Made by a program: the position numbers and the translations under genes. Below are positions 6,877-50,049 of a stretch of DNA of 64,000 nucleotides, one piece after another. The stretch's first letter is position 1. Each line of letters starts with the position of its first letter. The notes below the pieces were generated by a model that was not told the origin of the DNA, made no database searches, and worked only from the letters and a program-made list of their open reading frames with translations. This DNA comes from Clostridia bacterium (GTDB taxonomy: Bacteria; Bacillota; Clostridia; Oscillospirales; CAG-272). The stretch covers positions 8,418 through 72,417 of the forward strand of contig JAFUPM010000026.1 of the NCBI GenBank assembly GCA_017481225.1. The letters are read 5' to 3'.

Positions 6877-7142
6877 TTTTTACAGGGAGAACGCGTTTTT
6901 CTAAGCTGTACGTAAGCTGACTTTACACAGCGGAGTAGGCGAAATTTTGCGCACCCTGAGAGGGAAGCTTTGTTAGAGAGCCGGAGTTTAGACTTGCACC
7001 CGAGAGGGAAGCTTCGTCACTAAATTTCAGCCGAAAAGCTCAGCGCTCAAAGAAGGCTGACTTTCGGCACAGAGGCTGTGGCGCGATGCTCTCGCGCGGT
7101 GGCAAATGCGCTCTCTAACAGCGGTAAAAGAAAAATGAAAAT

Positions 7143-10576: not shown

Positions 10577-10662
10577 TTTTTTGTGAATCGCGGCAGAGTT
10601 TTTCGACTTGCGGTACCCTCGTACCGCTGGCGCCGGAAAAATCTTTGCGCTTCATCAAAAAA
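10577..10662. repeat. Family-A 86-nt palindromic intergenic repeat, copy 1
   Basis: The copy starts directly after the comM stop codon. It has a T6...A6 frame and an inner perfect hairpin gcggtac-cctc-gtaccgc (10610-10627). It differs from copy 2 (30540-30625) at one base. Confidence 0.85.
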
Positions 10663-10895
10663 TCAAGTGGACAGAGTTAAAAGAGTTTGATGGTGTCTTT
10701 AAATGAAAGAAAAAAGCAAATGTGTGCAGGCTGGCTTATGAATAACTTCGTGCTTCATCAAAAAACACATTTTGTATAATAAACTACTTTCGTTATTTGC
10801 AATTGACCGAATAAATAAGACCCGAAAGGTTTTGTAAAGCGATAGACAATACATACGGGCGAAAGCGGCTTTTATGGCTGTGAGAAGGATAATAA

Positions 10896-35207: not shown

Positions 35208-37040
35208 TTATAATTTATTTATGGTGATTTTTACTTTTAAGGTGTCCCTAGACTCTGCGCAAAAGGCTCTGTAGTGACCGTTTCGGTTAGCCGACGTAAA
35301 GCCAAGGTCGAGAATTTTGCCGTCGGTTTCATAGAGGCAAACCCAACCGCCGTAGGAAACGGTAAGGGTGCTGTCACTCTCGGCTATATCGGTGGACTCC
35401 TCACCGTCGAAGGTGAAGGCAGGGAGCATACAGGCAATATCGCCGTTCCCCGACAGCTCAAGGTAGACACCATCTCCTCCTACCTTGCAGAGCGTTCTGA
35501 TTATCCTGCCATCACTAAAGGCGCAGCTAATCTCTGCCGAAGCGTAGTCCAACTCTTCTCTGAGGCTTACAAGCTCGAGGTGCGCTGTGCCGTCCGCCGA
35601 GAAGCAGAGGCTGTCGCCACATCGGATACCCGGGCAAATTGAAAGAGGGGTGGGAGCTATATCCAGCTTATACTTAGGGTGAGAGGGGCAGGGGTGCGAC
35701 ATACAGACAGTGGCGGGCGCTTTGGCTCTGTGTACTCTTCCGACACCGCAAGCATCATAGCGCAGGTCCGCATTCAGGTCAAGCTCCGCCATATATTCGC
35801 CGCACTTCAAAAATACCTTATGGAAGCGGTCCGACGTGGCAAAGGCGCAGGGGGTGCTGTCGGACAATGCAAGTGCCGCGGTGCTGTCGGGCTCTGCGAG
35901 TGCCGATATGTTACCAGACTCTTCAAGTGCAGGTGCTACTTTGAGCGTTGCTGTGCCGTGGGGTTCTGTGAGTGCCGCGGTATTGCAGGGCTTTGTGAGC
36001 GCCGCGGTGCTATCGGGCTCTGCGAGTTCCGATGTGCTGTCGCAAAGAAGGTACGCCGCGTAAAGATTGGATGCCACCGTAATCATATATTTATCAAAGT
36101 AGGCGTAGCCCTCGCAGCCGTAGCCCGTATCCCTTGGATAGCGGTTTTTTATATGGGTCATAGGCTGCTTTGAAAGCCACTCTTCGGTTACGGATATTGC
36201 CGAGAATGCCGCAGCTTTGAACCTTTTTGCAAGCTCTGTGTTACCCTCCCTTGCATACCGTGAGCTTTCGTACTCGAACACAGCCGCTGCCCAGGGCTCG
36301 TTATGGATAAACTGATTGGACCTGCCGCCGAATGGAATTTCTCCGTTGGTTGACTGCATTTTCAGAGAGCAAATTCCCGAGCTTTTCAGCGCGCTGTCAA
36401 TTACCTCAAAATACTTACCCCTATAGCCGAGGTGAAGCAAAAGGCAGAAAAGCCCTCTGGTAACGTAATCGTATACAATGGGCTGATGTATCCTTTCGCT
36501 TTCGTAGTCGCAGTACATTCCGTTTGAGTCGAGCCACTTAATCTGGCAGGAGAGCTGCTTTTCCACAAAGGGAAGAGAGCCACAAAGTCCGCTGGAATAT
36601 CTTGCAAACTCGCTTACAGCGCCGAAAACCGCCCAGTTGGTTATAGGGTCGTCCTCACTCTCAACGATTTTGTTGTAGCACTCCTCAGGGACGATTTTCA
36701 CAAGGTCACGTTTCCAGCCCTCAAGAAGGGCGGAGTCCAAGACTCCCGACTCCTCAAGCTCGTTTATGCAAAAGACAATTTCGCGGACGGAGAACTCGTT
36801 CGCCGCCTTTACCCTCGGGCGCAAAAACATAGAGCAGCAAAGAGTCATCATTTCAATAAATTCGGGGAGAAGGTCCCGACATCTGCCCTTCGCAATCAAA
36901 ATGCCGATAGTTGCCGTCAGCCTTGGAAAGCCGTGCTCGGTGAGTCCGTTTTCCTTGACTGTTGAGATATATTTGTTTATATGCTCGCGAGAGTAGGCGA
37001 GAAGCGCCTTCTCCATAAGGTCAATATAGATTTTTTTCAT
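35208..37040 (-). CDS. Hypothetical 610-aa protein with an internal 27-nt (9-aa) tandem-repeat linker
   Basis: This long ORF has normal codon usage and no family I can name with confidence. The N-terminal ~330 aa might be an alpha/alpha-toroid enzyme, but that is a guess. The repeats AEPDSTAAL/TKPCNTAAL/TEPHGTATL are encoded at 35853-36041. Confidence 0.55.
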   Translation of the reverse strand: MKKIYIDLMEKALLAYSREHINKYISTVKENGLTEHGFPRLTATIGILIAKGRCRDLLPEFIEMMTLCCSMFLRPRVKAANEFSVREIVFCINELEESGVLDSALLEGWKRDLVKIVPEECYNKIVESEDDPITNWAVFGAVSEFARYSSGLCGSLPFVEKQLSCQIKWLDSNGMYCDYESERIHQPIVYDYVTRGLFCLLLHLGYRGKYFEVIDSALKSSGICSLKMQSTNGEIPFGGRSNQFIHNEPWAAAVFEYESSRYAREGNTELAKRFKAAAFSAISVTEEWLSKQPMTHIKNRYPRDTGYGCEGYAYFDKYMITVASNLYAAYLLCDSTSELAEPDSTAALTKPCNTAALTEPHGTATLKVAPALEESGNISALAEPDSTAALALSDSTPCAFATSDRFHKVFLKCGEYMAELDLNADLRYDACGVGRVHRAKAPATVCMSHPCPSHPKYKLDIAPTPLSICPGIRCGDSLCFSADGTAHLELVSLREELDYASAEISCAFSDGRIIRTLCKVGGDGVYLELSGNGDIACMLPAFTFDGEESTDIAESDSTLTVSYGGWVCLYETDGKILDLGFTSANRNGHYRAFCAESRDTLKVKITINKL

Positions 37041-37142
37041 AAAACCACCTTTTGCTCTGTCAGCTGCGCCACATGGCTCGGGGATAACAGAGGCACACTT
37101 ATGCTTTGATATTTTGATATCCTTTCGGTTGCATTGGAGAAA

Positions 37143-37832
37143 TCAGCCGCGCCACACGGCTCGGGGAATATATTCCCGAAGAGCTGACTCAAGCTCACGC
37201 ATTTCCCCGTCGGAGTAAGCCGACATTCCCTCGCAGAGTATATCTCCCGAGTCCTTGAAGCTTTGGAGAAAGAAGCTCTCCTCGCCCGCAAGCCACCTGC
37301 CAATGGAGACTATATCCTCCTTTGTGTGCAGCTCCTTCACGACTGTTGTGCGGAACTCAAAGTCCACCTTGCCTTCCATAAGCTGCGCCGCACTTTCGTA
37401 TATGGGCTTTAAGTCAATGGCCTCTATTCCGACGCACCTGCCGTAGCCCTCGGGGGAGCTTTTTATATCCATTGCCACGTAGTCCACAAGTCCCTCGGAC
37501 AAAAGCTCCCGAAGAACCTCGGGGCGGTAGCCGTTGGTATCAAGCTTTACCGCAAAGCCAAGTGCTTTTATTTTCTTTAGAAATTCGGGAAGCTCTCGGT
37601 GCAGGGTGGGCTCGCCTCCGCTTACACATACTCCCCGAAGCCTTCCGCGGCGGCTCTCAAGGAAGGAGAAAAACTCTCCTTCGGAAATATCATCGCCCTC
37701 GCTCTCGGGGCGAACCAGCGACGCGTTATGGCAGAACGGGCAGCGGAAATTGCAGCCGCCGAGAAAAACCGTGCAGGCAAGCTTCTCGGGGAAGTCAAGC
37801 AACGTCAGCTTTTGCAGTCCTTTTATCTTCAT
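37143..37832 (-). CDS. nrdG: Anaerobic ribonucleoside-triphosphate reductase activating protein (radical SAM)
   Basis: The N-terminus LLDFPEKLACTVFLGGCNFRCPFCHN (CX3CX2C) and GVCVSGGEPT are present in this 229-aa protein. Confidence 0.9.
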   Translation of the reverse strand: MKIKGLQKLTLLDFPEKLACTVFLGGCNFRCPFCHNASLVRPESEGDDISEGEFFSFLESRRGRLRGVCVSGGEPTLHRELPEFLKKIKALGFAVKLDTNGYRPEVLRELLSEGLVDYVAMDIKSSPEGYGRCVGIEAIDLKPIYESAAQLMEGKVDFEFRTTVVKELHTKEDIVSIGRWLAGEESFFLQSFKDSGDILCEGMSAYSDGEMRELESALREYIPRAVWRG

Positions 37833-38064
37833 AGGTGTTACCTCACAGACACTCTTATTAGTTTAGCCAAGACAGGTTAAAGCTCGGTTGGGGAGTGCCG
37901 TTTTTTCTACACTCTAATTATACTAAAAGTCGGTGGAATTGTCAAATAAAAGTTGACCCTAGGCAGCTTTTGCACTATTCCGAAAAAAAACAGTCCTCGC
38001 GGACACAGAAGCTGCGCTTTTAAAATCTTTATTAAGGACCGCAACGCCAGTGACAAAATAACGC

Positions 38065-38102
38065 AAAGGCACTTATGTCAATAACTGCCATAAGTGCCTT
38101 TT
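38065..38102. terminator. Hairpin terminator downstream of the RHH gene
   Basis: A 13-bp perfect stem joins aaaggcacttatg and cataagtgccttt. Confidence 0.55.
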
Positions 38103-38122
38103 ATGCCGCCTTCAAAACGAGT

Positions 38123-38314
38123 TTAATTTGCTTTTGGTTCTTTTGGAATTGCGATTTCTCCCTCGCTTTTTTCAAAAGCCTTTATTTCCTGTCTGATTAA
38201 ATAAAGTATTTCTCCGTTCGCCGAGCGACCGTAATACTTCGATATATAGTGAAGCTTATAATGAAGCTCAGGGTCAATTTCAATTCCAAGGTGCTTATTA
38301 TTTTTATTTCTCAT
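38123..38314 (-). CDS. Ribbon-helix-helix (Arc/CopG-like) DNA-binding protein
   Basis: This 63-aa protein has KHLGIEIDPELHYKLHYISKYYGRSANGEILYLIRQEI, which fits a beta-strand/helix/helix RHH pattern. A GGAG RBS is present. Confidence 0.6.
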   Translation of the reverse strand: MRNKNNKHLGIEIDPELHYKLHYISKYYGRSANGEILYLIRQEIKAFEKSEGEIAIPKEPKAN

Positions 38315-38414
38315 AAAATTCTCCGTTTAGCAATTTCCCGTTCTCCTGTCGGTAGGTATATTCTTTTTTACTGCTCTACTGTACGCACCTAAATAAGACC
38401 TCTGGTGAGGATTA

Positions 38415-38593
38415 TTATTTCAGCGACAGAACGTCGTTTATTTCTTTGCGGCTGTCGCCGTTTTTCAGATAATCCTTGAGAATTATATTTATAAACTGAG
38501 AAAGAGAGCGTTCGTAATAATCTGCCTTATGGCGAATTTGCTTCAGAACTCTCCGTCAACGGTTATGCTAATCTTTTCTTTTAACGGTTTCAT
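38415..38593 (-). pseudogene. Frameshifted CopG/RHH-family gene
   Basis: The ATG at 38593 gives MKPLKEKISITVDGEF and then a stop at 38545-38543. A one-base frame shift restores LKQIRHKADYYERSLSQFINIILKDYLKNGDSRKEINDVLSLK, ending at 38415. Joined, the two parts make a canonical ~59-aa RHH protein. Confidence 0.55.
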
Positions 38594-38666
38594 ATCATTC
38601 ATACCTTCGTACCACCTTCAAAAAGCAGATTTTTAAGTAAATTATAGCAGAAAATAGGATTTTGTA

Positions 38667-38700
38667 TTGACAAATAGGATAAAGTAGTATATTATACTAC
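38667..38700 (+). promoter_or_regulatory. Promoter TTGACA-17-TATTAT overlapped by the 8+1+8 palindrome GTAGTATA-T-TATACTAC
   Basis: The -35 box lies at 38667-38672, the -10 box at 38690-38695 and the palindrome at 38684-38700. The site lies between the divergent RHH pseudogene and the 140-aa ORF. Confidence 0.5.
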
Positions 38701-38727
38701 TAAAGAGTTATTTAAGAGGGAGGGATT

Positions 38728-39150
38728 ATGATGAAAGGCTTTAGTCACACAGACATACCCTTTGGAGTAAATGAATTTTTGAGAAGCAAGGACGAGGAAA
38801 TCAGAAGGCTTGAAGAGCTGATGAAGCCTTATCTTGAGGAGGAGTACGAGCTTTATCCCAACGCCGAGGAGGTACTGCAAAATATAAAGAATATATGCCG
38901 TACCATTGCAGACGGCACAGAGCCCGAGGTTTTCATTTCGAAAAAGCATCTTTTGGTTCACGTGAGCTTTGAGGTACTTTCGCTTACGCTGACCGCGGAG
39001 CGGGTCGAGGCTTTGGATAAGCTTGTGTCACTGTCGGAGGGAGTGGAGATAAGCGCTTATAGGGGAAGGGTAGGATTTACCGTGACGGTACCGTACTTCG
39101 CTGACGGGCAAAAAGCTCCGCTTCTGAGGGCGCTGTATGATATGAAGTGA
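38728..39150 (+). CDS. Hypothetical 140-aa protein
   Basis: This ORF has a GAGGGAGGG RBS and a dedicated promoter. I recognise no motif in it. Confidence 0.5.
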   Translation: MMKGFSHTDIPFGVNEFLRSKDEEIRRLEELMKPYLEEEYELYPNAEEVLQNIKNICRTIADGTEPEVFISKKHLLVHVSFEVLSLTLTAERVEALDKLVSLSEGVEISAYRGRVGFTVTVPYFADGQKAPLLRALYDMK

Positions 39151-39395
39151 GAGCTTGGTTTCCGTGCACTCCCGTTTTGGATAGCGCGCGAAGGGGTGAG
39201 TGAGGTTACGGTTTTTTAAAAAACGAAATAGCGAAACCAAATAGAAAGCGTCTGTGCTTTCGGTTTTTGGCGAGGGCTTCTGCTTGAGGCTCTCGCCTAA
39301 ATTTTTCCTATAAAAATTTTCTTTATAAGTTATTTTCGGGCAGAAAAAAACGGGCTATTTTTTCTTACTCAAAAATGCACAAATTTCCTGTCGAG

Positions 39396-39443
39396 ATACT
39401 AGATATTGTGACGAAAATTCGAAAAATACACCATATTTTGTAT
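39396..39443. promoter_or_regulatory. Two candidate NrdR boxes spaced 32 bp apart
   Basis: atactagatattgtga (39396-39411) and acaccatattttgtat (39428-39443) each match 13 of 16 positions of the acacWatatatWgtgt palindrome as I recall it. They lie just upstream of the nrdD promoter. Confidence 0.45.
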
Positions 39444-39451
39444 TTTTAGCA

Positions 39452-39480
39452 TTGACTTTTCCACATAATTGTGTTATTAT
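39452..39480 (+). promoter_or_regulatory. Sigma-A promoter TTGACT-17-TATTAT for nrdD, implying a ~315-nt leader
   Basis: TTGACT lies at 39452-39457 and TATTAT at 39475-39480. Confidence 0.55.
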
Positions 39481-39802
39481 ATATGCGCACGGAAAAAGTG
39501 AGTCCGTGGAAAATCCTTAAAAATGAAACCGCCCTTTTAACCCGGGGTGGTTTTCCCTATCTTATAAGGGTTTTGCATATTTTCGTGCATAAATTTTAGG
39601 TTTATGCATACTTTGACAGAAAAGCCTCAATCTTCTCGGCAATCCCTTTTGGGGAAGGGTGGAATATTTATTCTTACGGAGAGCTTTTCGGGCGGCTTTG
39701 GCTGCCTTTGTCGGGGGAAAAACACGGACACGCCTTGGGCGCACTTTTGAGGCTATTAATAATATTAATAATAAATAAAGGAAGAAAAGAAAGGAGAAAC
39801 AA

Positions 39803-42193
39803 ATGTATACTGTTCTGAAAAGAGACGGTAAGGTCGTTGATTTTGACATTAACAAGATTAGTGAAGCGATGATTCTGGCGTTTGACGCTCAGGAGAAAAA
39901 CTACAATCGCAATATTATAGATTTTCTGGCATTGAAGGTAACCGCAGACTTCGAGCCCAAGATTAAGGAGGGGCACATTGCTGTCGAGGATATCCAGGAC
40001 AGCGTTGAGTCGGTGCTTGTTCAGGCAGGATATGCCGACGTTGCGAAGGCGTACATTCTCTATCGCCGCCAGAGAGAAAAGCTCCGTAATATGAAGTCCA
40101 CCGTTCTTGACTACAAGACGACGGTTGATAACTATCTCAAGGTAAGTGACTGGAGAGTTAAGGAAAACTCCACTGTTACCTACTCCGTAGGAGGACTTAT
40201 TCTTAATAACTCGGGTGCTATTACCGCGAACTATTGGCTCTCCGAGATTTACGACGACGAGATTGCCAAGGCGCACAAGCATGCCGACATACATATTCAC
40301 GACCTCTCTATGCTTACGGGCTACTGCGCAGGCTGGTCCTTGAAGCAGCTTATCCAAGAGGGTCTTGGAGGCGTTGTAGGTAAGATTACCTCTGCTCCCG
40401 CAAAGCATCTTGCTACCCTTTGCAACCAGATGGTAAACTTCCTCGGCATTATGCAGAACGAGTGGGCAGGCGCACAGGCGTTCTCCTCCTTCGATACCTA
40501 CCTTGCGCCCTTCGTTAAGGTAGACAACCTCTCCTACGACCAGGTTAAAAAGTGCATTGAGTCCTTCATTTACGGCGTAAATACCCCCTCCCGTTGGGGT
40601 ACTCAGGCGCCCTTCTCCAACATAACCCTCGACTGGACCGTTCCTGCTGACCTTGCGGAGCTTCCCGCTATCGTAGGCGGCAAGGAGATGGACTTCAAGT
40701 ATAAGGACTGTAAGGCTGAGATGGATATGGTTAACCGCGCGTTCATCGAGACGATGATTGAGGGCGACGCCAACGGACGCGGCTTCCAGTATCCTATCCC
40801 CACCTACTCTATCACCCGTAACTTTGACTGGTCGGAGACCGAGAACAACAAGCTCCTCTTCGAGATGACCTCCAAGTACGGAACTCCCTACTTCTCCAAC
40901 TACATTAACAGCGATATGGAGCCCAGCGACGTCAGGTCTATGTGCTGCCGTCTGCGCCTTGACCTCCGCGAGCTTCGCAAAAAGTCGGGCGGCTTCTTCG
41001 GAAGCGGCGAAAGCACAGGCTCTGTGGGCGTTGTTACCATCAATATGCCGAGAATTGCTTATCTTGCGGCTGATAAGGAGGACTTCTTCCACCGTCTTGA
41101 CCGTATGATGGACATTGCGGCTCGCTCTCTTAAGATTAAGAGAACCGTTATTACAAAACTCCTCGACGAGGGTCTTTACCCCTACACCAAGAGATATCTC
41201 GGCACCTTCGCTAACCACTTCTCCACCATAGGACTTGTTGGTATGAACGAGGTTGGACTTAACGCCAAGTGGCTTGGTAAGGATATGACACACAAGGAAA
41301 CCCAGGAGTTCACAGCGCTCGTCCTTGACCACATGAGAGAGCGTCTGTCCGACTACCAGGAGGAGTACGGCGACCTCTATAACCTTGAGGCTACTCCTGC
41401 GGAGTCTACCAGCTACCGCCTTGCGAAGCACGACCTTCGCCGTTATCCCGCTATCATCACCGCGTCGGATAAGACGAAGAACGAGACTCCCTACTACACC
41501 AACTCCTCTCACCTTCCCGTAGGCTACACCGACGATATATTCGCTGCCCTTGATATTCAGGACGAGCTGCAGACCCGTTATACCTCGGGTACCGTATTCC
41601 ACGCCTTCCTTGGCGAGAAGCTCCCCTCTTGGAAATCTGCGGCAACCCTTATCCGCACTATTGCGGAGAACTATAAGCTCCCCTATTACACCCTTTCTCC
41701 CACCTATTCCGTATGTAAAAACCACGGATATATTGCAGGCGAGGCGTATTCCTGCCCTCACTGCGGAGAGAAAACCGAGGTTTACAGCCGTATTACGGGC
41801 TACTACCGCCCCGTTCAGAACTGGAACGACGGCAAAACCCAGGAGTATAAGGACAGAGTGGTTTACTCCCCCTCTCACTTCGGCGACAAGGCTCCCATAC
41901 TCGGAGATATGCCCTTTACGGAGGATGCGGCTGTGGCTACCTCTGCCACGGTGGACAAGCTTCTCCTCTTCACCACCAAGACCTGCCCCAAGTGCCGTAT
42001 GGCGAAAACCTTCCTTGAGAAGGCGGGCATTGAGTATGAGACCGTGCTGGCTGACGAGAACGCAGAGCTTGTTAACCTTTACGGCGTGAAGGAGGCTCCC
42101 ACCCTCGTAATTCTTGCAGATGACGGCAGCTTTGAGAAGGTCAGCAACCCCTCGAATATCAAGGCGTTCTGCGACAAGAGCGTCAACGCCTAA
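39803..42193 (+). CDS. nrdD: Anaerobic ribonucleoside-triphosphate reductase (class III) with a fused C-terminal thioredoxin/glutaredoxin-like domain
   Basis: This 796-aa protein has an N-terminal ATP-cone (MYTVLKRDGKVVDFDINKI), a finger loop SMCCRLRL, a Zn site CPHCG and the glycyl-radical motif RITGYYRP. About 125 extra residues follow and contain FTTKTCPKC. Confidence 0.95.
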   Translation: MYTVLKRDGKVVDFDINKISEAMILAFDAQEKNYNRNIIDFLALKVTADFEPKIKEGHIAVEDIQDSVESVLVQAGYADVAKAYILYRRQREKLRNMKSTVLDYKTTVDNYLKVSDWRVKENSTVTYSVGGLILNNSGAITANYWLSEIYDDEIAKAHKHADIHIHDLSMLTGYCAGWSLKQLIQEGLGGVVGKITSAPAKHLATLCNQMVNFLGIMQNEWAGAQAFSSFDTYLAPFVKVDNLSYDQVKKCIESFIYGVNTPSRWGTQAPFSNITLDWTVPADLAELPAIVGGKEMDFKYKDCKAEMDMVNRAFIETMIEGDANGRGFQYPIPTYSITRNFDWSETENNKLLFEMTSKYGTPYFSNYINSDMEPSDVRSMCCRLRLDLRELRKKSGGFFGSGESTGSVGVVTINMPRIAYLAADKEDFFHRLDRMMDIAARSLKIKRTVITKLLDEGLYPYTKRYLGTFANHFSTIGLVGMNEVGLNAKWLGKDMTHKETQEFTALVLDHMRERLSDYQEEYGDLYNLEATPAESTSYRLAKHDLRRYPAIITASDKTKNETPYYTNSSHLPVGYTDDIFAALDIQDELQTRYTSGTVFHAFLGEKLPSWKSAATLIRTIAENYKLPYYTLSPTYSVCKNHGYIAGEAYSCPHCGEKTEVYSRITGYYRPVQNWNDGKTQEYKDRVVYSPSHFGDKAPILGDMPFTEDAAVATSATVDKLLLFTTKTCPKCRMAKTFLEKAGIEYETVLADENAELVNLYGVKEAPTLVILADDGSFEKVSNPSNIKAFCDKSVNA

Positions 42194-42249
42194 GTAACGC
42201 CAAGGCGTTCTGCGATAGGAGCGTCAACGCCCAAGTAACGCCAAGGCGG
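42160..42249. repeat. 41-nt tandem duplication (2.2 copies) straddling the nrdD stop codon
   Basis: The copies lie at 42160-42200, 42201-42241 and 42242-42249 (partial). Full copies 1 and 2 differ at four positions. Confidence 0.8.
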
Positions 42250-42345
42250 AAAAATTTAATTTATGAAAAACTCGCCCAAGCAGCTAATCTGTTTGGGCGA
42301 GCCTAGTGCTACGACAACGGACGGTAAAACCGTCGGGAGACATAT

Positions 42346-43290
42346 ATGTACGATATAATTATAGTAGGAGCAGGTCCTGCCGGACTCACCGCGGCAATCT
42401 ACGCGCGCAGAGCCGAGAAGAGTGTTCTCGTTATAGAAAAGGACACCTTCGGCGGTCAGATAACCCACTCCCCAAGAGTAGAAAATATCCCCGGCTTCCT
42501 CGAGGTCAGCGGCAACGAGTTCGCCGACAAACTCATCGAGCAGGCGATGGAGCAGGGGGCTGAAATAGAGCTTGACACAGTTACGGGCATTGGCGGAGAA
42601 GAAGGAAACTACACCGTCATTTGCGGAAGCAAGGAGTACCGGGCAAGGTCGGTTATCGTTGCCACAGGCTCAAGGCACAGAACTCTCGGAATTGCAAACG
42701 AGGAGCGCTACACGGGAGAGGGAATTTCCTATTGCGCGGTTTGTGACGGAGCCTTCTTCAGAGGCAAGAGCGTGGCGGTTATCGGCGGCGGAAACTCCGC
42801 TTTGCAGGACGCCGTAATGCTCTCGGAGAGCTGCCCGAAGGTCTACGTTGTGCAGAACCTAGAGTTCCTCACGGGTGAAAAAAAGCTGCAGAAAATACTC
42901 GCTGAGCGCGAGAACGTTGAGTTTATATATAACAGTGTTGTGAAAAGGATTATTGCCGACGGGTCGGAGCTGCGCGGTATAGTTATCGCCGACTCAAGAG
43001 GCGGCGGCGAGATGGAGCTGAGGGTTGACGGAGTGTTCGTTGCAATTGGTCAGGTACCCGAAAACGAGCCCTTCAAGGCGGCTCTTAAGCTTAACGATTA
43101 CGGCTATGTTGTAGCGGGCGAGGGCTGTGTGCCCGAGGCGGCAGAGGACGGAACTGTACCGAGAGGCGGTATTTTCGTCGCGGGAGATTGTCGGACAAAG
43201 TCGGTTCGCCAGGTTACAACCGCCACCGCCGACGGCGCCGTAGCAGCTATCGCCGCTTGCAGATTTATCGACTCTCTCGATAGGGAATAA
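42346..43290 (+). CDS. trxB: Thioredoxin-disulfide reductase homologue lacking the NADPH HRRxxxR motif
   Basis: This 314-aa protein has the FAD motif GAGPAGLTAA, the redox pair CAVCDG and GGGNSA. The segment aligned to HRRDxFRA reads QNLEFLTG. Confidence 0.85.
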   Translation: MYDIIIVGAGPAGLTAAIYARRAEKSVLVIEKDTFGGQITHSPRVENIPGFLEVSGNEFADKLIEQAMEQGAEIELDTVTGIGGEEGNYTVICGSKEYRARSVIVATGSRHRTLGIANEERYTGEGISYCAVCDGAFFRGKSVAVIGGGNSALQDAVMLSESCPKVYVVQNLEFLTGEKKLQKILAERENVEFIYNSVVKRIIADGSELRGIVIADSRGGGEMELRVDGVFVAIGQVPENEPFKAALKLNDYGYVVAGEGCVPEAAEDGTVPRGGIFVAGDCRTKSVRQVTTATADGAVAAIAACRFIDSLDRE

Positions 43291-43347
43291 TAATGAGAAA
43301 CGCTTGCGGATTTATCGACTTTCCCCATAGGAAACAGTAACGAGAAT
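43254..43347. repeat. 47-nt tandem duplication (~79% identical) straddling the trxB stop codon
   Basis: Copy 1 (43254-43300) includes the last codons and the stop codon. Copy 2 (43301-43347) follows directly. Confidence 0.6.
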
Positions 43348-43474
43348 AAACGAAAAATAAAATAAAAACACCGAAAATGCAAATCAAAGTGAGCATTTTC
43401 GGTGTTTTTTATAAATGAAACGCGCTTTTTACGAAAGGCTTTCAAAAAACTAAACTTGCGCAAGGCGCGAAGCT

Positions 43475-43702
43475 TTAAGGTCTTGTCCAGCCCTCTTCGT
43501 CGAAGTAGCCGCCGCTGGGGAGACCGCTGCCGTCGCCCTCGGAGCCGCCGTTATCTCCGCCCTCGGAGCCGCCGTTCTCTCCGCTGTTATCTCCGCCCTC
43601 GGAGCTGCCCTCGTCGTTATTATCACCGTCATTGTCTACGCAGGAAACCATAACGGTAAACGACAGCATAAGTATAAGTAAAAGTGCTAATAGCTTTTTC
43701 AT
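43475..43702 (-). CDS. Small putative lipoprotein with an acidic Gly/Ser/Asp/Asn-rich repetitive body
   Basis: I prefer the start MKKLLALLLILMLSFTVMVSC at 43702, which has an AAGGAAG RBS. The signal peptide ends in Cys. The body has GGDNSGENGGSEGGDNGGSEGDGSG repeats. Confidence 0.55.
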   Translation of the reverse strand: MKKLLALLLILMLSFTVMVSCVDNDGDNNDEGSSEGGDNSGENGGSEGGDNGGSEGDGSGLPSGGYFDEEGWTRP

Positions 43703-44056
43703 TTTCAATCTTCCTTTATTTAGCCGAGTTCTCGGCAACTTTTTTGTATCTATATTTTACCATAACCCATAGGGCTTGTCAAGGGGTAGTTGAGCCTAGA
43801 TGATATAAAGAGAAGAAAATTAACATAAAGGATATAATTACTTTTACAAGGTGTCGGGCTGTATTTTGAAATCAGCTCCTTGATATCGGGGAGGAGGGCT
43901 GTGTCCTTGCCCGTAATATTGCCGAAGTCACATAACCCCAAAAGATTCCTTGGGTCGAGTCGGAGTATCTCGCAAATCCGCTTCGGCTGCTAAAGGACCG
44001 ACACCCAAACGTCGCATAACTTTATAGATAAAGCCGCCCTACACGCAAGGCGGCTT

Positions 44057-44302
44057 TTACTGTTCAACTTCTAAATCTTCAGAACTGAAAATCTCGTCAT
44101 CTAAAAACTCGGTAAGAGGCATATTGAAGCCTCGGGCAATCATAATCACGGTGCTTAAGGTTACCGTTTTATTTCTTCCATTCATTATACATTGCATACT
44201 TCCGTGCTGTATTCCCGATTCCTGCTCCAGGCGGTATTGGGACATATTCTTTTCGCGCAATAGCTTTGAAATTCGCTTTGCAACAGCGTCGTTGACAGTC
44301 AA
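44057..44302 (-). CDS. XRE-family HTH transcriptional regulator
   Basis: This 81-aa protein has RISKLLREKNMSQYRLEQESGIQHGSMQCIMNG, a Cro/C1 HTH pattern. It starts at TTG with an AGGGGG RBS. Confidence 0.7.
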   Translation of the reverse strand: MTVNDAVAKRISKLLREKNMSQYRLEQESGIQHGSMQCIMNGRNKTVTLSTVIMIARGFNMPLTEFLDDEIFSSEDLEVEQ

Positions 44303-44452
44303 GCTGATACCCCCTGCTAAGAAGATTTAACTCCGTAGATTTACCTACATATATCATTTTACCAAGAAACAGAGAAAATAATAAGAAGGTGTGCCTACAT
44401 ACTCTTGATTTTTTAAATCGCTTGTTAGCCCTTTGCGCGTTTTTATATAAAG

Positions 44453-44482
44453 AAAAAGACGGAAATCAAATTCCGTCTTTTT
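44453..44482. terminator. Bidirectional terminator downstream of the IDH gene
   Basis: The stem agacggaa / ttccgtct is flanked by an A-run and a T-run. Confidence 0.75.
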
Positions 44483-44637
44483 GCTTGCTGTTTTTTAATG
44501 CGATTAAAATGCTTTTAGAATATGCCCGATAAGGTATCCGTCGGGAATGATTTATAGAGTTATTACCGTTTACCTTTGACTTTACCGAGCTGTGGGATTA
44601 AAAAATTGGGTTATAAATTGGGAGAAGGCTGTGTGGT

Positions 44638-45807
44638 TTATACCTTCTCGAGGGTTTCCATAACGTAGTTTGCGAAATCTGCGCAGGTGGCGCCGTCGGG
44701 TCTGCCGGTGATGGTCAGGCGTTTTTCCTCAAAGGAGCAGATGTCGAGGGCGCGCTCGAGTCTGTCGGCGCGGTCCTGGTAGCCGATGTGGGAGAGGAGC
44801 ATTACTACGGCGCGGAGCATTGAGCAGGGGTCGGCGTAAATTGCTCTGCCTTCTCTTACCATTCTGGGTGCCGAGCCGTGGATTGCCTCGAACATCGCGT
44901 ATTTTTTGCCGATATTGGCGCAGCCTGCCGTGCCGACGCCGCCCTGGAATTCAGCAGCCTCGTCGGAAATGATATCGCCGTAGAGGTTGGGGAGAAGGAG
45001 AATCTGGAAGTCGCGGCGGCGCTTTTTGTCAACGAGCTTTGCCGTCATAATATCCGCGTACCACTCGTCGGTGGTAATTTCGGGATAAAGCTCTGCAACC
45101 TTGTGGCAATCCTCGAGGAAGTTGCCGTCGGTGGTTTTGATAACGTTTGCTTTAGTGACGAGGGAAACTCTGGTTCTGCCGTTCTTTCTCGCGTAATCGT
45201 AGGCAAGGCGGGCAATTCTGTCGGAGCCCTGCTTTGTGGTGATGGTGAAGTCTACCGCCAGGTCGTCTGTTACGTTGAAGCCCGAGGAGCCAACCGCGTA
45301 GCCGCCCTCGGTGTTCTCGCGGAAGATGCACCAATTGATGCCCTCCTCGGGCACCTTAACGGGTCTGATGTTGGCGAAAAGGTCGAGAGCCTTTCTCATA
45401 GCAACGTTTGCCGACTCGATGTTAGGCATACCGTCGCCCTTCTGGGGTGTTGTGGTAGGACCCTTGAGGATTATGTCGCAAGCCTTAAGCTCCGCCATAA
45501 CGTCGTCGGGGATAGCCTTGCCGCAGGCAATTCTGTTCTCAATGGTAAGTCCTTCTATGGTCTTGAACTCAACCTTCCCCGACTCAACGAGGTCGGAGAG
45601 CATATATTCAAGAACTCTTGCTGCCTCCTTCGTAATAATCGGTCCGATGCCGTCGCCGCCGCAAACACCTATCTTTATAGTATCTATTGCGCCGTAGTCG
45701 GTGAAGTCGCCCTGGGACTTCATATCCTCAACTCTTACGAGTTGTTTTTCAAGAATTTTTCTGAATTTTTCGCAAGCTAAGTCCAGCTGCTCTTTGTAGT
45801 TTTCCAT
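44638..45807 (-). CDS. Isocitrate/isopropylmalate dehydrogenase family protein (probable isocitrate dehydrogenase)
   Basis: I prefer the start MENYKEQ at 45807, which has a GAGGA RBS. The motifs ENTEG, NLYGDIISD and GSAP(R) of beta-decarboxylating dehydrogenases are present. The operon context with aconitase supports the call. Confidence 0.8.
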   Translation of the reverse strand: MENYKEQLDLACEKFRKILEKQLVRVEDMKSQGDFTDYGAIDTIKIGVCGGDGIGPIITKEAARVLEYMLSDLVESGKVEFKTIEGLTIENRIACGKAIPDDVMAELKACDIILKGPTTTPQKGDGMPNIESANVAMRKALDLFANIRPVKVPEEGINWCIFRENTEGGYAVGSSGFNVTDDLAVDFTITTKQGSDRIARLAYDYARKNGRTRVSLVTKANVIKTTDGNFLEDCHKVAELYPEITTDEWYADIMTAKLVDKKRRRDFQILLLPNLYGDIISDEAAEFQGGVGTAGCANIGKKYAMFEAIHGSAPRMVREGRAIYADPCSMLRAVVMLLSHIGYQDRADRLERALDICSFEEKRLTITGRPDGATCADFANYVMETLEKV

Positions 45808-45987
45808 TGGTTTTTCCTCGTTTTTGTAAATATTAGTAGTCAAATATTGTGGTTTTTGCATTTTGAATGTGGTTTTTAAAGATGTAATTAATTAATTTAT
45901 TTAAACACAAAAAACAGATTTTTGAAATAAAAGAAAATAAGATAAAGTGTATTCGTTATAAATCCGCTAAAGCAAATGAAGCGAAAA

Positions 45988-47919
45988 TCAGCTCTCGGAT
46001 TTAGCGTAATTCAGTGCGCCGCCTGCAAGCAAAATCTCGCGCTGTCTTTGAGAAAGGGTGAGTTTAAGGGGCAGACGTGTCTCGTTTTCGCCTACAACGA
46101 GGGTTACCTCATCGCCCGAGCGAATAGCTTCTGCGAAGCCTTCAATTCTTAAAGAGTCGCCCTCGGATATCTTATCGTAGTCGCCCTCGTCCTTAAGGGT
46201 CATAGGAACGATACCGAAGTTTATAAGGTTAGCTACGTGTATTCTCGCAAAGCTCTTTGCAATAACCGCCTTGACACCGAGATAAAGAGGAACCAGCGCC
46301 GCGTGCTCGCGTGAGGAGCCCTGGCCGTAGTTCTGTCCGCCGAGAATAACTCCGCCGCCCTCCTTCAAGGCTCTTTCGGGGAAGTCCTTGTCGCAGACGG
46401 TGAAGCAGAACTCCGAGAGCTTCGGTACGTTGGAACGGTAGGGAAGTATTTTCGCGCCTGCGGGCATAATGTGGTCGGTTGTGATGTTGTCACCAACCTT
46501 TAGTATAAGCTTTGTGCTAAGTGTTTCGTCGGGAGCTTTGCCCTTGGGAATAGGCTTGATATTGGGTCCGCGCTCGACGCCGAGAGCCTTCGCCGCCTCC
46601 GGCTCTGCGGGCAGCTCTATAAGGTTATCGTTAATGGTAAATTTCGTCGGTAATTTAACACGGGGTGCCACTCCGAGGGTTGTTGGGTCGGTAAAGACAC
46701 CTGCAATTGCCGATGCTGCCGCCACCTCGGGGGACACGAGATATACGCTGGCATCAGCGGTACCGCTGCGGGCGAGGAAGTTACGGTTGAAGGTTCTCAG
46801 GCTGACGCCCTTTGACTTTGGGGAAAAGCCCATACCGATGCAGGGACCGCAGGCACACTCAAGTATTCTCGCGCCTGCCGCAATCATATCCGCCAGGGCT
46901 CCGCACTCGGCGAGCATAGTATAAACCTGCTTCGAGCCGGGGGAGATGGAAAGGGAGACGTCGGGGTGAATGGTTTTGCCCTTCAGCATTGCCGCCACGG
47001 TGAGCATATCAGCGAGAGAGGAGTTGGTGCAGGAGCCTATGCATACCTGGTCAATCTTCATTCCCGCAAGAGAGGAGACGGGCTTTACGTTATCCGGGCT
47101 GTGAGGGCAAGCCGCCAGGGGCTTAAGGGCTGAAAGGTCAACGGTGTAAATTGCGTCGTAAACAGCGTCCGCATCGGGAGCGAGTGCCACGTAGGCGTCC
47201 TCTCTGCCCTGCGCCTTAAGAAAGGCTCTCGTCGCCTCGTCGGAGGGGAATATTGAGCTTGTGGCTCCAAGCTCCGCGCCCATATTGGTTATGGTTGCTC
47301 TCTGGGGAACCGAAAGGGTCTTGACGCCCTCGCCCGCATACTCGATAACTGCGCCCACACCGCCCTTGACGCCAAGCTGGCGAAGGACCTCCAAGATAAC
47401 GTCCTTTGCGCCGACGTAGTCGGAGAGCGCGCCGAGAAGCTCTACCTTAATAACCTTCGGCATAGTGATGTAGTAGGCGCCGCCGCCCATAGCTACGGCA
47501 ACGTCAAGTCCGCCTGCCCCCATACCGAGCATACCGATACCGCCTGCCGTGGGTGTGTGGCTGTCGGAGCCAATCAGAGTTTTGCCGGGTATGCCGAAGC
47601 GCTCAAGGTGTACCTGGTGGCAAATGCCGTTGCCGGGTCGGGAAAATCTGACACCGTGTTTTTTTGCCACGGTCTGTATGTAGCGGTGGTCGTCGGCGTT
47701 CTCAAAGCCCGACTGAAGGGTGTTATGGTCGATGTATGCAACGGAAAGCTCGGTTTTAACCCTCTCAATCTCCATTGCCTCCAGCTGGAGATAAGCCATA
47801 GTACCCGTCGCGTCCTGGGTGAGTGTCTGGTCAATGCGCAGTCCTATTTCACTTCCTGCTTTCATCTCACCGCAAACAAGGTGGTTTTTGATTATTTTTT
47901 CTACTATTGTGTAGCCCAT
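45988..47919 (-). CDS. Aconitate hydratase
   Basis: This 643-aa protein has Fe-S ligand regions (GSDSHT; IGSCTN; CGPCIG) and a swivel domain (GQNYGQGSSREHAA). Confidence 0.9.
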   Translation of the reverse strand: MGYTIVEKIIKNHLVCGEMKAGSEIGLRIDQTLTQDATGTMAYLQLEAMEIERVKTELSVAYIDHNTLQSGFENADDHRYIQTVAKKHGVRFSRPGNGICHQVHLERFGIPGKTLIGSDSHTPTAGGIGMLGMGAGGLDVAVAMGGGAYYITMPKVIKVELLGALSDYVGAKDVILEVLRQLGVKGGVGAVIEYAGEGVKTLSVPQRATITNMGAELGATSSIFPSDEATRAFLKAQGREDAYVALAPDADAVYDAIYTVDLSALKPLAACPHSPDNVKPVSSLAGMKIDQVCIGSCTNSSLADMLTVAAMLKGKTIHPDVSLSISPGSKQVYTMLAECGALADMIAAGARILECACGPCIGMGFSPKSKGVSLRTFNRNFLARSGTADASVYLVSPEVAAASAIAGVFTDPTTLGVAPRVKLPTKFTINDNLIELPAEPEAAKALGVERGPNIKPIPKGKAPDETLSTKLILKVGDNITTDHIMPAGAKILPYRSNVPKLSEFCFTVCDKDFPERALKEGGGVILGGQNYGQGSSREHAALVPLYLGVKAVIAKSFARIHVANLINFGIVPMTLKDEGDYDKISEGDSLRIEGFAEAIRSGDEVTLVVGENETRLPLKLTLSQRQREILLAGGALNYAKSES

Positions 47920-48013
47920 TGCTTTGTCCTCTTTAAGGTTAGTGTTTTGCTTTTAATTTTTAAGGCTTTGCGCTTTAATTTTACTGAGTTTGATTTAGGG
48001 ATTATCTTGTCTT

Positions 48014-48670
48014 TTATCTTTTCTCAAGTGTCAGGAGCAGATTGTCTCTTGCGGCTCCGATGTGGGAGCAGGTAAGTCGCTCCGCTTCCTCGGAATTGCG
48101 ACACTCTATGGCACTTAGGATATCTCCGTGCTCCTTGATTGATGCTTCAAGTCTATCGTGAACCGAGAGAGAAAGCCTTCTATATGAGCGTATGTTTCTG
48201 TGAAGCTCTGTGAGGATTTTACACAGATGCCGTGAGCCCGATGCGCGGTAGATTATACTGTGGAACTCCGAGTCAAGCTCCTTTATGTGGTCGTAGTCCT
48301 TCTTGGTAAGGTAGAACTCGGACAGCTCCTGTGACTCGCGAAGACGGGAAAGCGACTCTTCGTCTATTCTCGCAGCGGCGAGAGATGCCGCCGTTCCCTC
48401 AAGCTTCATTCTGATGTTATAGATGTCTATAAGGTCGTCGGTGCTGACTCCGACTACCACGGCGCCCTTGTTGGGTATTATCTCAACAAGCCCTTCCTCA
48501 GCGAGGGTGTGTATGGCGGAGCGAAGGGGTGTACGGCTGACTCCCAGCCTTTGGGAGAGGGAAATTTCGGTGAGAGAATCACCGACTTTAAGCGTTCCGT
48601 TCAGTATCTCCTCCTCAAGACGGAGAAAGACACTTTCGCCGAGAGATTTAATGTTTTTGTCAACTATCAT
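48014..48670 (-). CDS. GntR family (FadR/FCD subfamily) transcriptional regulator embedded in the operon
   Basis: The N-terminal winged HTH (SLTEISLSQRLGVSRTPLRSAIHTLAEEGLV) is followed by an FCD-like C-domain. The start overlaps the upstream stop by 4 nt. Confidence 0.85.
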   Translation of the reverse strand: MIVDKNIKSLGESVFLRLEEEILNGTLKVGDSLTEISLSQRLGVSRTPLRSAIHTLAEEGLVEIIPNKGAVVVGVSTDDLIDIYNIRMKLEGTAASLAAARIDEESLSRLRESQELSEFYLTKKDYDHIKELDSEFHSIIYRASGSRHLCKILTELHRNIRSYRRLSLSVHDRLEASIKEHGDILSAIECRNSEEAERLTCSHIGAARDNLLLTLEKR

Positions 48671-50049
48671 TTACAAACTCCCCCTTTTAAGCGAGGATAA
48701 TAGAAGCTGATAATCTGCTCAAGCTCCTCGTCGCCCATAAGAGTTGTACGCCCGTCGGCATAGAGTCTGTCTATCTCCTCCTTGACCTTCTTGACTATCT
48801 CGTCGGCCTTGGTGAAGGCGGTTCCGTCGTCGCGCTCGTAGTGCTTATTCATCCAATAAGCGATACCTGCCGTACCCGAGGTGTTGGATATAGCAACCTC
48901 TGCGGGGCGGTTCAAAATCTTCCCCGTATCGAAGATGTTGTATATCTCCGCATCCTTCATAAGTCCGTCCGCGTGAATACCCGCGCGGGTGAGGTTGAAG
49001 GCTGAGCCAACGAAGGGCGTCATAGGGGGAATTTCATAGCCAAGCTCCGCCTTGAAGTAATCGGCAATGTCGGTGATAGCCGTGGGGTCCATACCGTCCA
49101 GCGTGCCTCTGAGTCCTGCGTACTCCATAACCATAGCCTCAAGGGGAATATTACCCGTTCTCTCGCCTATGCCGAGAAGGGAGCAGTTGACACCCGACGC
49201 ACCGTAGAGCCACGCGTTAACGGCGTTGGTTACTCCGTGGTAGAAGTCGTTGTGACCGTGCCACTCCAGCATATCCGAGGTCACGTCCGCATAGTGGTGC
49301 AAGCCGTAAACTATGCCGGGAACCGAACGGGGAAGCGCTGCGCCGGGGTAGGAGACACCGTAGCCCATAGTGTCGCACATTCTGATTTTTACGGGAATTC
49401 CCGCATCGTGCGCCAGGTCGTTAAGCTCGTTTACGAAGGGTACAACGAAGCCGTAGAAGTCGGCTCTGGTAATATCCTCAAGGTGGCATCTTGGACGTAT
49501 TCCTGCGGAGAATGCGGTTTTTACTACTCCGAGGTAATGGTCAAGAGCCTCTTTTCTCGAAAGACCCAGCTTTTTAAATATATGGTAGTCGGAGCAGGAG
49601 ACCAAAATGCCCGTCTCCTTAATTCCGATATCGCGCACGAGGTTAAAGTCCTCTCTTTTTGCTCTTATCCAGGTTGTGACCTCGGGGAACTCGTAGCCAA
49701 GGGACATACAGCGCTCAACGGCCTCTCTGTCCTTTTTGGTATATACGAAAAATTCGCTCTGGCGTATAAGGCCCTTAGGACCGCCCAGCCTGTGTATAAG
49801 CTTGAAGAGCGTCTCTATCTGCTCTGCGGTGTAGGGGGCTCTGGACTGCTGACCGTCACGGAAGGTGGTGTCGGTAATCCAGATTTCCTCAGGCATCGCG
49901 AAGGGCACGCGTCGGTGGTTGAAGGTAACCTTCGGTATTTCGTCATAGGGGTAAATATCTCTGTAAAGATTTGGCTCGTCAACGTCCTGGAGAGAATATT
50001 TGTACTGTGACTGCTCCAGAAGATTTGAATGCTTGTTCTTTGCTATCAT
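48667..50049 (-). CDS. HMGL-like (homocitrate / 2-isopropylmalate synthase family) enzyme, probable Re-face citrate synthase
   Basis: This 460-aa protein has ITDTTFRDGQQ at the start of the TIM barrel and an H.HNDF metal site. It is co-operonic with aconitase and IDH, as for clostridial Re-citrate synthase. Confidence 0.7.
   Translation of the reverse strand: MIAKNKHSNLLEQSQYKYSLQDVDEPNLYRDIYPYDEIPKVTFNHRRVPFAMPEEIWITDTTFRDGQQSRAPYTAEQIETLFKLIHRLGGPKGLIRQSEFFVYTKKDREAVERCMSLGYEFPEVTTWIRAKREDFNLVRDIGIKETGILVSCSDYHIFKKLGLSRKEALDHYLGVVKTAFSAGIRPRCHLEDITRADFYGFVVPFVNELNDLAHDAGIPVKIRMCDTMGYGVSYPGAALPRSVPGIVYGLHHYADVTSDMLEWHGHNDFYHGVTNAVNAWLYGASGVNCSLLGIGERTGNIPLEAMVMEYAGLRGTLDGMDPTAITDIADYFKAELGYEIPPMTPFVGSAFNLTRAGIHADGLMKDAEIYNIFDTGKILNRPAEVAISNTSGTAGIAYWMNKHYERDDGTAFTKADEIVKKVKEEIDRLYADGRTTLMGDEELEQIISFYYPRLKGGVCK

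Follow-up and report, generated by a model that had tools for sequence, protein, structure and literature searches.

The locus described here lies in a 64,000-nucleotide stretch of DNA (the window) from a scaffold of a 'Clostridia bacterium' metagenome-assembled genome (MAG), which derives from a ruminant gut metagenome. Its main components are nrdD, encoding a class III ribonucleotide reductase (RNR) that continues into a thioredoxin-fold redoxin domain (39803-42193, + strand, 796 amino acids), and a trxB-like gene for a flavoprotein disulfide reductase (42346-43290, + strand, 314 amino acids) that starts 152 nt after the nrdD stop codon. A gene for the class III RNR activase NrdG, a radical SAM protein of 229 amino acids, lies on the - strand at 37143-37832 (TIGR02495 NrdG2, 209 bits, cut-off 131; Pfam Radical_SAM). 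In the NCBI annotation these proteins appear as a ribonucleoside triphosphate reductase, a FAD-dependent oxidoreductase (the TrxB-like protein) and an activase. A preliminary description of this DNA had proposed that the locus encodes a self-contained electron path, from ferredoxin, flavodoxin or NADH through the TrxB-like protein and the tethered redoxin to NrdD. All NrdD and TrxB motifs and coordinates listed there agree with the table of open reading frames (ORFs) and the output of a motif script.

The nrdD gene and its tethered redoxin domain

The NrdD protein comprises an ATP-cone, which is the allosteric activity site (amino acids 3-92, 39809-40078; PF03477, E = 2.1e-20), the catalytic core (121-688, 40163-41866; PF13597, E = 2.6e-190), a linker (689-716, 41867-41950) and the redoxin domain (717-796, 41951-42190), all encoded on the + strand. 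Two curated models recognize the protein: TIGR02487 with 511.9 bits (cut-off 326), and NF006126 with 1128.7 bits (cut-off 548) over amino acids 2-689. Because the latter model stops where ordinary NrdDs stop, amino acids 690-796 can be regarded as an add-on. The class III assignment also draws on the Zn-ribbon CPHCG (41753-41767; ligands C638, H641, C651 and C654 in the core), the glycyl-radical motif RITGYYRP (41789-41812, with the Gly666 codon at 41798-41800) and the NrdG activase nearby. The ORF runs 126 amino acids past RITGYYRP.

Pairwise comparison with NrdDs of solved structure aligns the core over its whole length with Thermotoga maritima NrdD (TmNrdD). The conserved 'bottom' (beta-A) cysteine, Cys175 (40325-40327), aligns with TmNrdD C125, a conserved reducing cysteine that delivers reducing equivalents (PMC4493059). 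The finger loop SMCCRLRL (40937-40960) carries Met380-Cys381-Cys382 (MCCR, 40940-40948), of which the two cysteines (40943-40948) align with the SCCR pair of TmNrdD. The active-site glutamate, Glu529 (41387-41389), aligns with TmNrdD E495, equivalent to E438 of Neisseria bacilliformis NrdD; the formate-type NrdD of Prevotella copri (8P23) has a leucine at this position and an MGCR finger loop. With the meaning of the finger-loop motifs taken from Burnim et al. (PMC9669993), Cys382 is presumed to be the thiyl-radical cysteine and Cys381 the extra reducing cysteine. Judged by these alignments, NrdD carries the full thiol-dependent (NrdD2) catalytic set of Cys175, Cys381-Cys382 and Glu529, which bears out the thiol-dependent signature suggested in the preliminary description.

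Relatives were collected in a species scan with the redoxin-domain alignment, using one genome per species. This yielded at least 600 pattern matches, of which at least 595 were confirmed as relatives by tblastn, and all locus counts below come from the best 80 of these at least 595 relatives. The best 120 protein clusters at 90% identity related to the window NrdD were also examined, and every one of them has the redoxin tail. All 120 close homologues keep SMCCR unchanged, as do, without exception, those of the 80 loci whose sequence covers this part of the gene. NLEATPAE, which surrounds Glu529, occurs in every evaluable locus except L026, where SMCCR was matched. The MCCR state makes up 83% of double-cysteine class III sequences and provides components for the use of either formate or thioredoxin (PMC9669993). 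By its finger loop, the window NrdD falls in this double-cysteine majority group, whose reductant is formally ambiguous.

The redoxin domain has its active site, CPKC, at 41984-41995 (C728 and C731) and a cis-proline in 'APTL'. The domain matches Pfam Glutaredoxin (PF00462, amino acids 721-770) with 35.0 bits (cut-off 22.9, E = 1.7e-8) and falls just below the threshold for Thioredoxin (PF00085, 23.4 versus 23.5). Curated family models are left unmatched: for thioredoxin, TIGR01068 scores 18 versus 96.8, the site being TCPKC rather than WCGPC; for NrdH, TIGR02194 scores 24.7-28.3 versus 85.75 and NF007657 17.3 versus 131; and for glutaredoxin, TIGR02181 scores 22.3 versus 90 and NF007923 19.2 versus 129, the site being CPKC rather than of the CPYC type. 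An AlphaFold model built from an alignment of 37 homologues gives amino acids 717-796 a four-stranded beta-alpha-beta-alpha-beta-beta-alpha thioredoxin fold at a predicted local distance difference test score (pLDDT) of ~85, preceded by a flexible linker with a pLDDT of ~52. The top Foldseek matches of the domain in the PDB are thioredoxins (probability 1.0, template-modelling (TM) scores 0.55-0.68). Both cysteines and the proline of CPxC, together with the cis-proline of 'APTL', are invariant among 80 diverse homologues. Profile match, model and structure search agree with the thioredoxin-type fold that had been read from the letters, and they point to a real domain, namely a small, flexibly tethered redoxin that is specific to this family and has a CP[NK]C site. 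By its profile scores this domain stands outside the curated NrdH, glutaredoxin and thioredoxin families. It may nevertheless act in the manner of NrdH or thioredoxin, as a glutaredoxin-sized protein reduced by a thioredoxin reductase (TrxR).

In relatives, 42-80 amino acids (median 50) separate the glycyl motif from the redoxin domain. A cysteine pair (CxC, CxxC, CC or CCCC) lies in the linker just before the redoxin in 57 of 188 fused relatives (~30%; carriers include L010, L011, L015, L016, L019, L026, L031, L041, L044 and L068). Such pairs, absent from the window protein, call to mind the shuttle cysteines at the C-terminus of class I and class II RNRs. A 41-nt unit, AAGGCGTTCTGCGAYARGAGCGTCAACGCCYAAGTAACGCC, is duplicated in tandem on the + strand across the nrdD stop codon (42161-42249, 2.2 copies, read from the sequence), with the TAA stop in the first copy and CAA in the second. 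This duplication looks like recent slippage of the nrdD 3' end and is probably incidental.

Searches with the redoxin domain against representatives at 50% identity returned mostly short or standalone-looking proteins, many of which begin inside the NrdD tail, and this set is therefore unsuited to gauging how often the domain is fused or free. A few relatives of the module have unusual architectures. One protein of 1314 amino acids (P0311) is an NrdD-redoxin fusion with an intein and an HNH endonuclease inside its core, and another of 950 amino acids (P0056) has an internal duplication of ~150 amino acids that includes the finger loop and is probably an assembly artefact. In two others (P0354, 255 amino acids; P0305, 138 amino acids) the N-terminal part of a TrxB of the QNL type described below is joined directly to the redoxin, either as a chimera or as a fusion.

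The adjacent TrxB-like protein and the spread of the gene unit

The TrxB-like protein has the main features of low-molecular-weight TrxRs, namely the FAD motif GAGPAG (42367-42384), the redox motif CAVC (42733-42744), a GD motif and the overall fold. It also has the pyrophosphate motif GGGNSA (42784-42801); all TrxB motifs given here are on the + strand. The HRRxxxR motif is absent. In the alignment its place is taken by VVQNLEFLTGEKK (42847-42885), which lines up, column for column, with 'IVHRRDTLRAQK' of Bacillus cereus TrxR, such that the 2'-phosphate motif becomes QNLEFLT (hereafter QNL). Each of the 120 homologues with 70% identity or more keeps both QNLxxLTGE and GGGN[ST]A, and because of this conservation the replacement is not attributable to decay. 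The preliminary description had stated that this protein lacks the NADPH motif. That holds for HRRxxxR but not for the intact and conserved GGGNSA, and what the protein lacks is just the 2'-phosphate part of the NADPH site, the pyrophosphate-binding part being retained.

Overall similarity is far higher to B. cereus TrxR (2e-71) than to the clostridial ferredoxin-dependent FFTR (6GNA, 3e-29, about 46th among the PDB hits). The structure prediction (pLDDT 86.5) has a canonical TrxR fold, matches B. cereus TrxR with a TM score of 0.87 and is confident in the NAD(P)H domain. The score for the TrxB equivalog TIGR01292, 305.1 bits, lies below its cut-off of 343.45. Membership in the FFTR group was considered and rejected, given the weak FFTR similarity and the retained, conserved GGGNSA. 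A neighbour-joining tree, which is distance-based and carries no support values, places the QNL proteins in a single clade nested within the HRR-type TrxBs of clostridia. The same VQNLxxLT motif is present in the solved TrxR of Thermosipho africanus (7JYP), an organism related to Thermotoga.

The thioredoxin-docking motif G[R/K]G also differs from that of canonical enzymes. It reads GEG in the window protein (42715-42723) and is mostly replaced by GEG, GNG or GSG in the other NrdD-linked TrxBs. G[R/K]G is likewise lost in Desulfovibrio vulgaris TR3, which is specific for a non-canonical thioredoxin (PMC5627308), and by this analogy the loss points to an altered partner.

The redoxin domain forms the C-terminus of NrdD in 79 of the 80 loci, the remaining one being cut by a contig end. 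A trxB homologue lies directly 3' on the same strand in ~61 of 76 evaluable loci, often overlapping nrdD or less than 100 nt away, and elsewhere within 6 kb in 3-4 further loci. An nrdG gene lies immediately 5' on the same strand in 48 of 59 evaluable loci. The conserved unit is nrdG, then nrdD with its fused redoxin, then trxB. In the window, nrdG is instead inverted and divergent, ~2 kb from nrdD, unlike the arrangement in most relatives. The unit occurs, among others, in Oscillospiraceae, Acutalibacteraceae, Lachnospiraceae, Christensenellales, Lentisphaeria, Bacilli, Erysipelotrichaceae and one spirochaete. Almost all carriers are gut or rumen MAGs, and one is a cultured species, Pseudoflavonifractor phocaeensis (L022).

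The preliminary description had proposed surveying how often the fusion co-occurs with HRR-less trxB genes. Among the 80 fusion loci, ~46 have a QNL-type TrxB, ~18 have an ordinary HRR-type enzyme, and ~4, from Bacilli and Erysipelotrichaceae, have a TrxB in which the two NAD(P)H motifs are both altered. A third variant was seen in three loci from Bacilli and Erysipelotrichaceae (L064, L077 and L078), where nrdD with its fused redoxin is followed by a TrxB with GDANTALQ and TLFDKFF and then by a convergent nrdG; TrxBs of this type are closer to canonical TrxRs than to FFTR. One Acutalibacteraceae MAG (L044) holds two types in a single genome, a QNL TrxB after the fusion gene (6180-7136, + strand) and an HRR TrxB 3.5 kb away (9772-10707, - strand).

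The association was also examined from the TrxB side by scanning metagenomes for GGGN[ST]A followed after 17 amino acids by QNLxxLTGE. This gave at least 120 loci, 92 of which have usable upstream sequence. Among these 92 metagenomic loci listed, the QNL-type trxB is preceded by nrdD with its fused redoxin in 68 (74%). Together with the conserved synteny across taxa, this reciprocal result strongly backs the link between NrdD and TrxB that had been proposed. Several QNL trxB genes that stand apart from nrdD (L106, L110, L124, L140, L168, L172, L186, L189 and others) have no adjacent thioredoxin gene.

Proposed electron path and alternative explanations

Thioredoxin-dependent NrdD2 enzymes are known in N. 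bacilliformis as well as in T. maritima, according to the parts of Wei et al. 2014 that are relayed in PMC9669993, PMC4390871 and PMC4493059. The window NrdD shares with them the beta-A cysteine, the double cysteine of the finger loop and the active-site glutamate, and by analogy its reductant would likewise be a protein dithiol instead of formate. Unlike in those systems, NrdD here contains the redoxin within its own polypeptide chain, and the reductase gene belongs to the same cluster. In addition, the finger loop is MCCR rather than SCCR, such that the methionine of the formate-type mechanism is present, and there is an ATP-cone. The NrdD3 system of Methanosarcina barkeri, as far as Wei et al. 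2015 is reported in PMC9176816 and PMC5704485, also pairs a dedicated glutaredoxin-fold redoxin with a disulfide reductase. In these accounts it differs by a QCCR/A loop without the methionine or glutamate, by a separate redoxin, and by a reductase that is an Fe-S protein and not a flavoprotein.

Fusions of redoxins to RNR subunits have a precedent in the Facklamia ignava Grx::ATP-cone::NrdB protein, in which the glutaredoxin was shown to act as an RNR reductant (PMC6187632). That fusion is of class I, involves the radical-generating subunit, has its glutaredoxin at the N-terminus and works with glutathione. The family described here differs by its C-terminal fusion, its CP[NK]C site and a TrxR-type partner encoded next door. 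One 'Glutaredoxin:NrdD' entry, from Lachnospiraceae bacterium TWA4 (NrdDd), is listed without study in Table S1 of PMC6187632, and no study of a C-terminal NrdD-redoxin fusion or of an nrdD-trxB operon was found in the searchable literature. A covalently tethered redoxin in a dithiol relay is also known from AhpF, whose module is NADH-dependent (PMC12288474); there the tether joins the redoxin to the reductase, whereas in the present family it links the redoxin to the terminal enzyme. The NrdD-redoxin-TrxB module is widespread, coherent and built from familiar parts, namely thioredoxin-dependent NrdD2 and redoxin-RNR fusions.

We propose, with moderate confidence, that the RNR encoded here is a thiol-dependent, NrdD2-like class III enzyme with a covalently attached immediate reductant that is fed by the neighbouring TrxB, NADH being the favoured donor. 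NrdG would install the glycyl radical, Cys382 and Gly666 would carry the radical, and Glu529 would serve as the base. After each turnover, the active-site disulfide Cys175-Cys381 would be re-reduced by the CPKC dithiol of the redoxin domain, swinging on its disordered tether of ~28 residues. The CAVC dithiol of the TrxB-like flavoenzyme, encoded immediately downstream, would in turn return the oxidised redoxin to its reduced state, and the flavin of this enzyme would accept hydride from a pyridine nucleotide, most likely NADH over NADPH. The whole path would run from NADH to FAD, CAVC, CPKC, the Cys175/Cys381 disulfide and finally nucleoside triphosphate reduction. The analysis shows the domain architecture, the catalytic motifs, the fold, the synteny of the three genes and the conservation of the QNL replacement; the electron transfers are inferred by analogy with the N. 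bacilliformis NrdD (PMC9669993, PMC4390871), and the choice of donor is likewise inferred.

As the donor of TrxB, we give NADH about an even chance, consider ferredoxin or flavodoxin unlikely, and regard NADPH as quite improbable, the remainder falling to some other donor. NADH is preferred over NADPH because HRRxxxR is replaced by the uncharged QNLxxLT while GGGNSA is intact. Comparable enzymes are the HRR-less TrxRs of T. maritima, D. vulgaris (TR3) and Thermoplasma acidophilum, as well as 7JYP, all of which share the low-molecular-weight TrxR fold and CxxC (PMC5627308, PMC6262447). Those of T. maritima and D. vulgaris prefer NADH, and the T. acidophilum enzyme, first called NAD(P)H-independent, was later shown to be NADH-dependent (PMC5627308, PMC6262447). 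Because the HRR-less TrxRs that have been tested are NADH enzymes, loss of HRR alone does not imply independence from pyridine nucleotides. HRRxxxR is also absent from the clostridial 'dcTR1' group of TrxRs (PMC5627308, PMC6262447). The combination of a kept pyrophosphate motif and a replaced 2'-phosphate motif is seen in the window TrxB and directly in 7JYP, and is reported for TR3 (PMC5627308); by that paper's criterion the window protein resembles NADH-dependent TrxRs, although it does no more than resemble them. TRi, the Clostridium pasteurianum FTR, the Methanocaldococcus jannaschii DFTR and the Clostridioides difficile FFTR-type TrxB1 have a pyrophosphate motif that is degenerate or less conserved, or lack it (PMC5627308, PMC10880999).

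Several observations weigh against the NADH-fed path and are given here and with the alternatives on which they bear. An acidic residue at such a site of a Rossmann fold is classically associated with NAD specificity, and the QNL site has none. We know of no sequence rule that proves NADH use. 7JYP falls outside the QNL clade in the neighbour-joining tree, its QNL motif may be convergent, and its cofactor preference was not found in the searchable literature. About one quarter of the fusion loci with an adjacent trxB pair it with an HRR-type TrxB, and the QNL change is therefore not required for the module.

The same architecture might instead operate with a QNL TrxB that is independent of pyridine nucleotides and fed by reduced ferredoxin or flavodoxin, which would tie deoxynucleoside triphosphate (dNTP) synthesis to the low-potential pool. 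HRRxxxR is wholly replaced by uncharged residues, ferredoxin-dependent flavin TrxRs exist in Clostridia (PMC10880999, PMC8154056), and the clostridial FFTR is itself a TrxR homologue without HRRxxxR. The presence of a QNL TrxB by nrdD and an HRR TrxB nearby in the Acutalibacteraceae MAG suggests different donors. A methanogen ferredoxin:disulfide reductase feeds NrdD3 via NrdH, as cited in PMC9176816. This alternative is nonetheless unlikely in our judgement. Similarity to FFTR is weak by comparison with that to canonical TrxR, and GGGN[ST]A is strictly conserved, whereas ferredoxin-, F420- and NAD(P)H-independent enzymes lack this motif or conserve it less (PMC5627308, PMC10880999), including the C. 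difficile FFTR-type TrxB1, which lacks GxGxxA (PMC10880999). The window TrxB has no C-terminal aromatic tail of the DTR type, and across the 80 loci no ORF for a 4Fe-4S ferredoxin turns up repeatedly in the neighbourhood of the module. Given these points and the HRR-type partners, the self-contained ferredoxin or flavodoxin path of the preliminary description is not supported in the form given there, and the NADH alternative that it also named is the better guess, albeit still a guess.

The main rival for the role of the redoxin domain is that it keeps NrdD cysteines, for example those of the Zn-ribbon or finger loop, reduced for activation by NrdG or for recovery after oxidation, with formate as the turnover reductant via Met380 and Cys175. 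Retention of Met380 keeps this rival alive. Enzymes restricted to thioredoxin lack the finger-loop methionine, and its presence here makes formate chemistry through a Met-Cys thiosulfuranyl radical possible, in line with the view that MCCR enzymes hold the components for either reductant (Burnim et al., PMC9669993). Thioredoxin has been reported to activate the Escherichia coli class III RNR, in a study cited in PMC4390871, and the redoxin domain follows directly after the Zn-ribbon and glycyl domain. But Cys381 and Glu529 are invariant in all relatives, whereas P. copri NrdD has Gly and Leu there, and a stoichiometric tether with an operonic reductase would seem to exceed the needs of occasional repair, which leaves this explanation rather improbable. 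We assign a slightly lower likelihood still to the idea that TrxB is a general cellular TrxR, using NADPH weakly or NADH, that sits beside nrdD by chance with no special tie to the redoxin. It would fit the 24 of 92 QNL-type trxB genes listed that occur away from nrdD in unrelated contexts, which show that QNL TrxB is strongly but not exclusively tied to NrdD, and the 11 of 76 fusion loci with no trxB within 6 kb. It would also fit the finding that the redoxin CPKC/CPNC site does not covary with the G-E/N/S-G docking residue of TrxB (Fisher p = 0.69), a covariation that would have been a sign of direct contact. On the other side stand the adjacency of the two genes, which lie 0-100 nt apart or overlap and stay together in ~80% of loci from distant taxa, the 74% of listed QNL trxB genes that follow the fusion gene, and the lost docking motif, which points to a changed partner.

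A bolder form of the proposal is that QNL TrxB is donor-switched, being either strictly NADH-specific or dependent on ferredoxin or flavodoxin, and forms with the redoxin a self-contained, NADPH-independent wire into NrdD; by extension, the large majority group of double-cysteine NrdDs with MCCR and the glutamate would be protein-dithiol enzymes in vivo. We regard this form as tentative and on balance doubtful.

Gene surroundings and wider meaning

Two NrdR-box-like sites with the core ACWANATNTWGT lie 32 bp apart on the + strand, at 39398-39409 and 39430-39441, just 5' of a putative sigma-70-like promoter match (39452-39480, + strand) and ~320 nt before the nrdD start; all three are no more than consensus matches. 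NrdR-box matches are not enriched window-wide (5 versus 4.3 in shuffles), and only the tandem placement ahead of an nrd gene is suggestive. No terminator-like site was found between nrdD and trxB in the window, and the two genes are probably co-transcribed. A search for RNA elements in 37000-44500 gave no Rfam match at E <= 0.1.

Downstream of nrdG, an unannotated 610-amino-acid ORF (35208-37040, - strand) matches no Pfam family; within it lies a low-complexity repeat region (AEPDSTAALTKPCNTAALTEPHGTATL). It was considered as a recurring companion of the module and rejected, as it has no homology to the 622-amino-acid gene between nrdD and trxB in another locus (L135). On the far side of trxB, genes for an HMGL-like synthase, a GntR/FCD regulator, aconitase and isocitrate dehydrogenase (44638-50049, - strand) form an oxidative-branch tricarboxylic acid cycle set that gives the impression of ordinary chromosomal surroundings.

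Strict anaerobes obtain dNTPs from class III RNRs, for few of which the reductant, formate or a redoxin, is settled. For the MCCR group, the largest with a double-cysteine finger loop, the literature describes the reductant as explicitly ambiguous (PMC9669993). Genomes partly answer this question, because hundreds of gut and rumen species join a redoxin to an MCCR NrdD and keep a thioredoxin-reductase gene adjacent to it. A redoxin tethered at 1:1 stoichiometry suits cryo-electron microscopy or cross-linking, and if the donor-switched form of the proposal were true, the fusion would offer a first way to trap or image a redoxin as it reaches the buried NrdD active site. The natural HRR and QNL variants of the module could reveal how low-molecular-weight TrxRs switch cofactor specificity. 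If NADH is the donor, these fermenters would make their DNA precursors independently of the NADPH pool.

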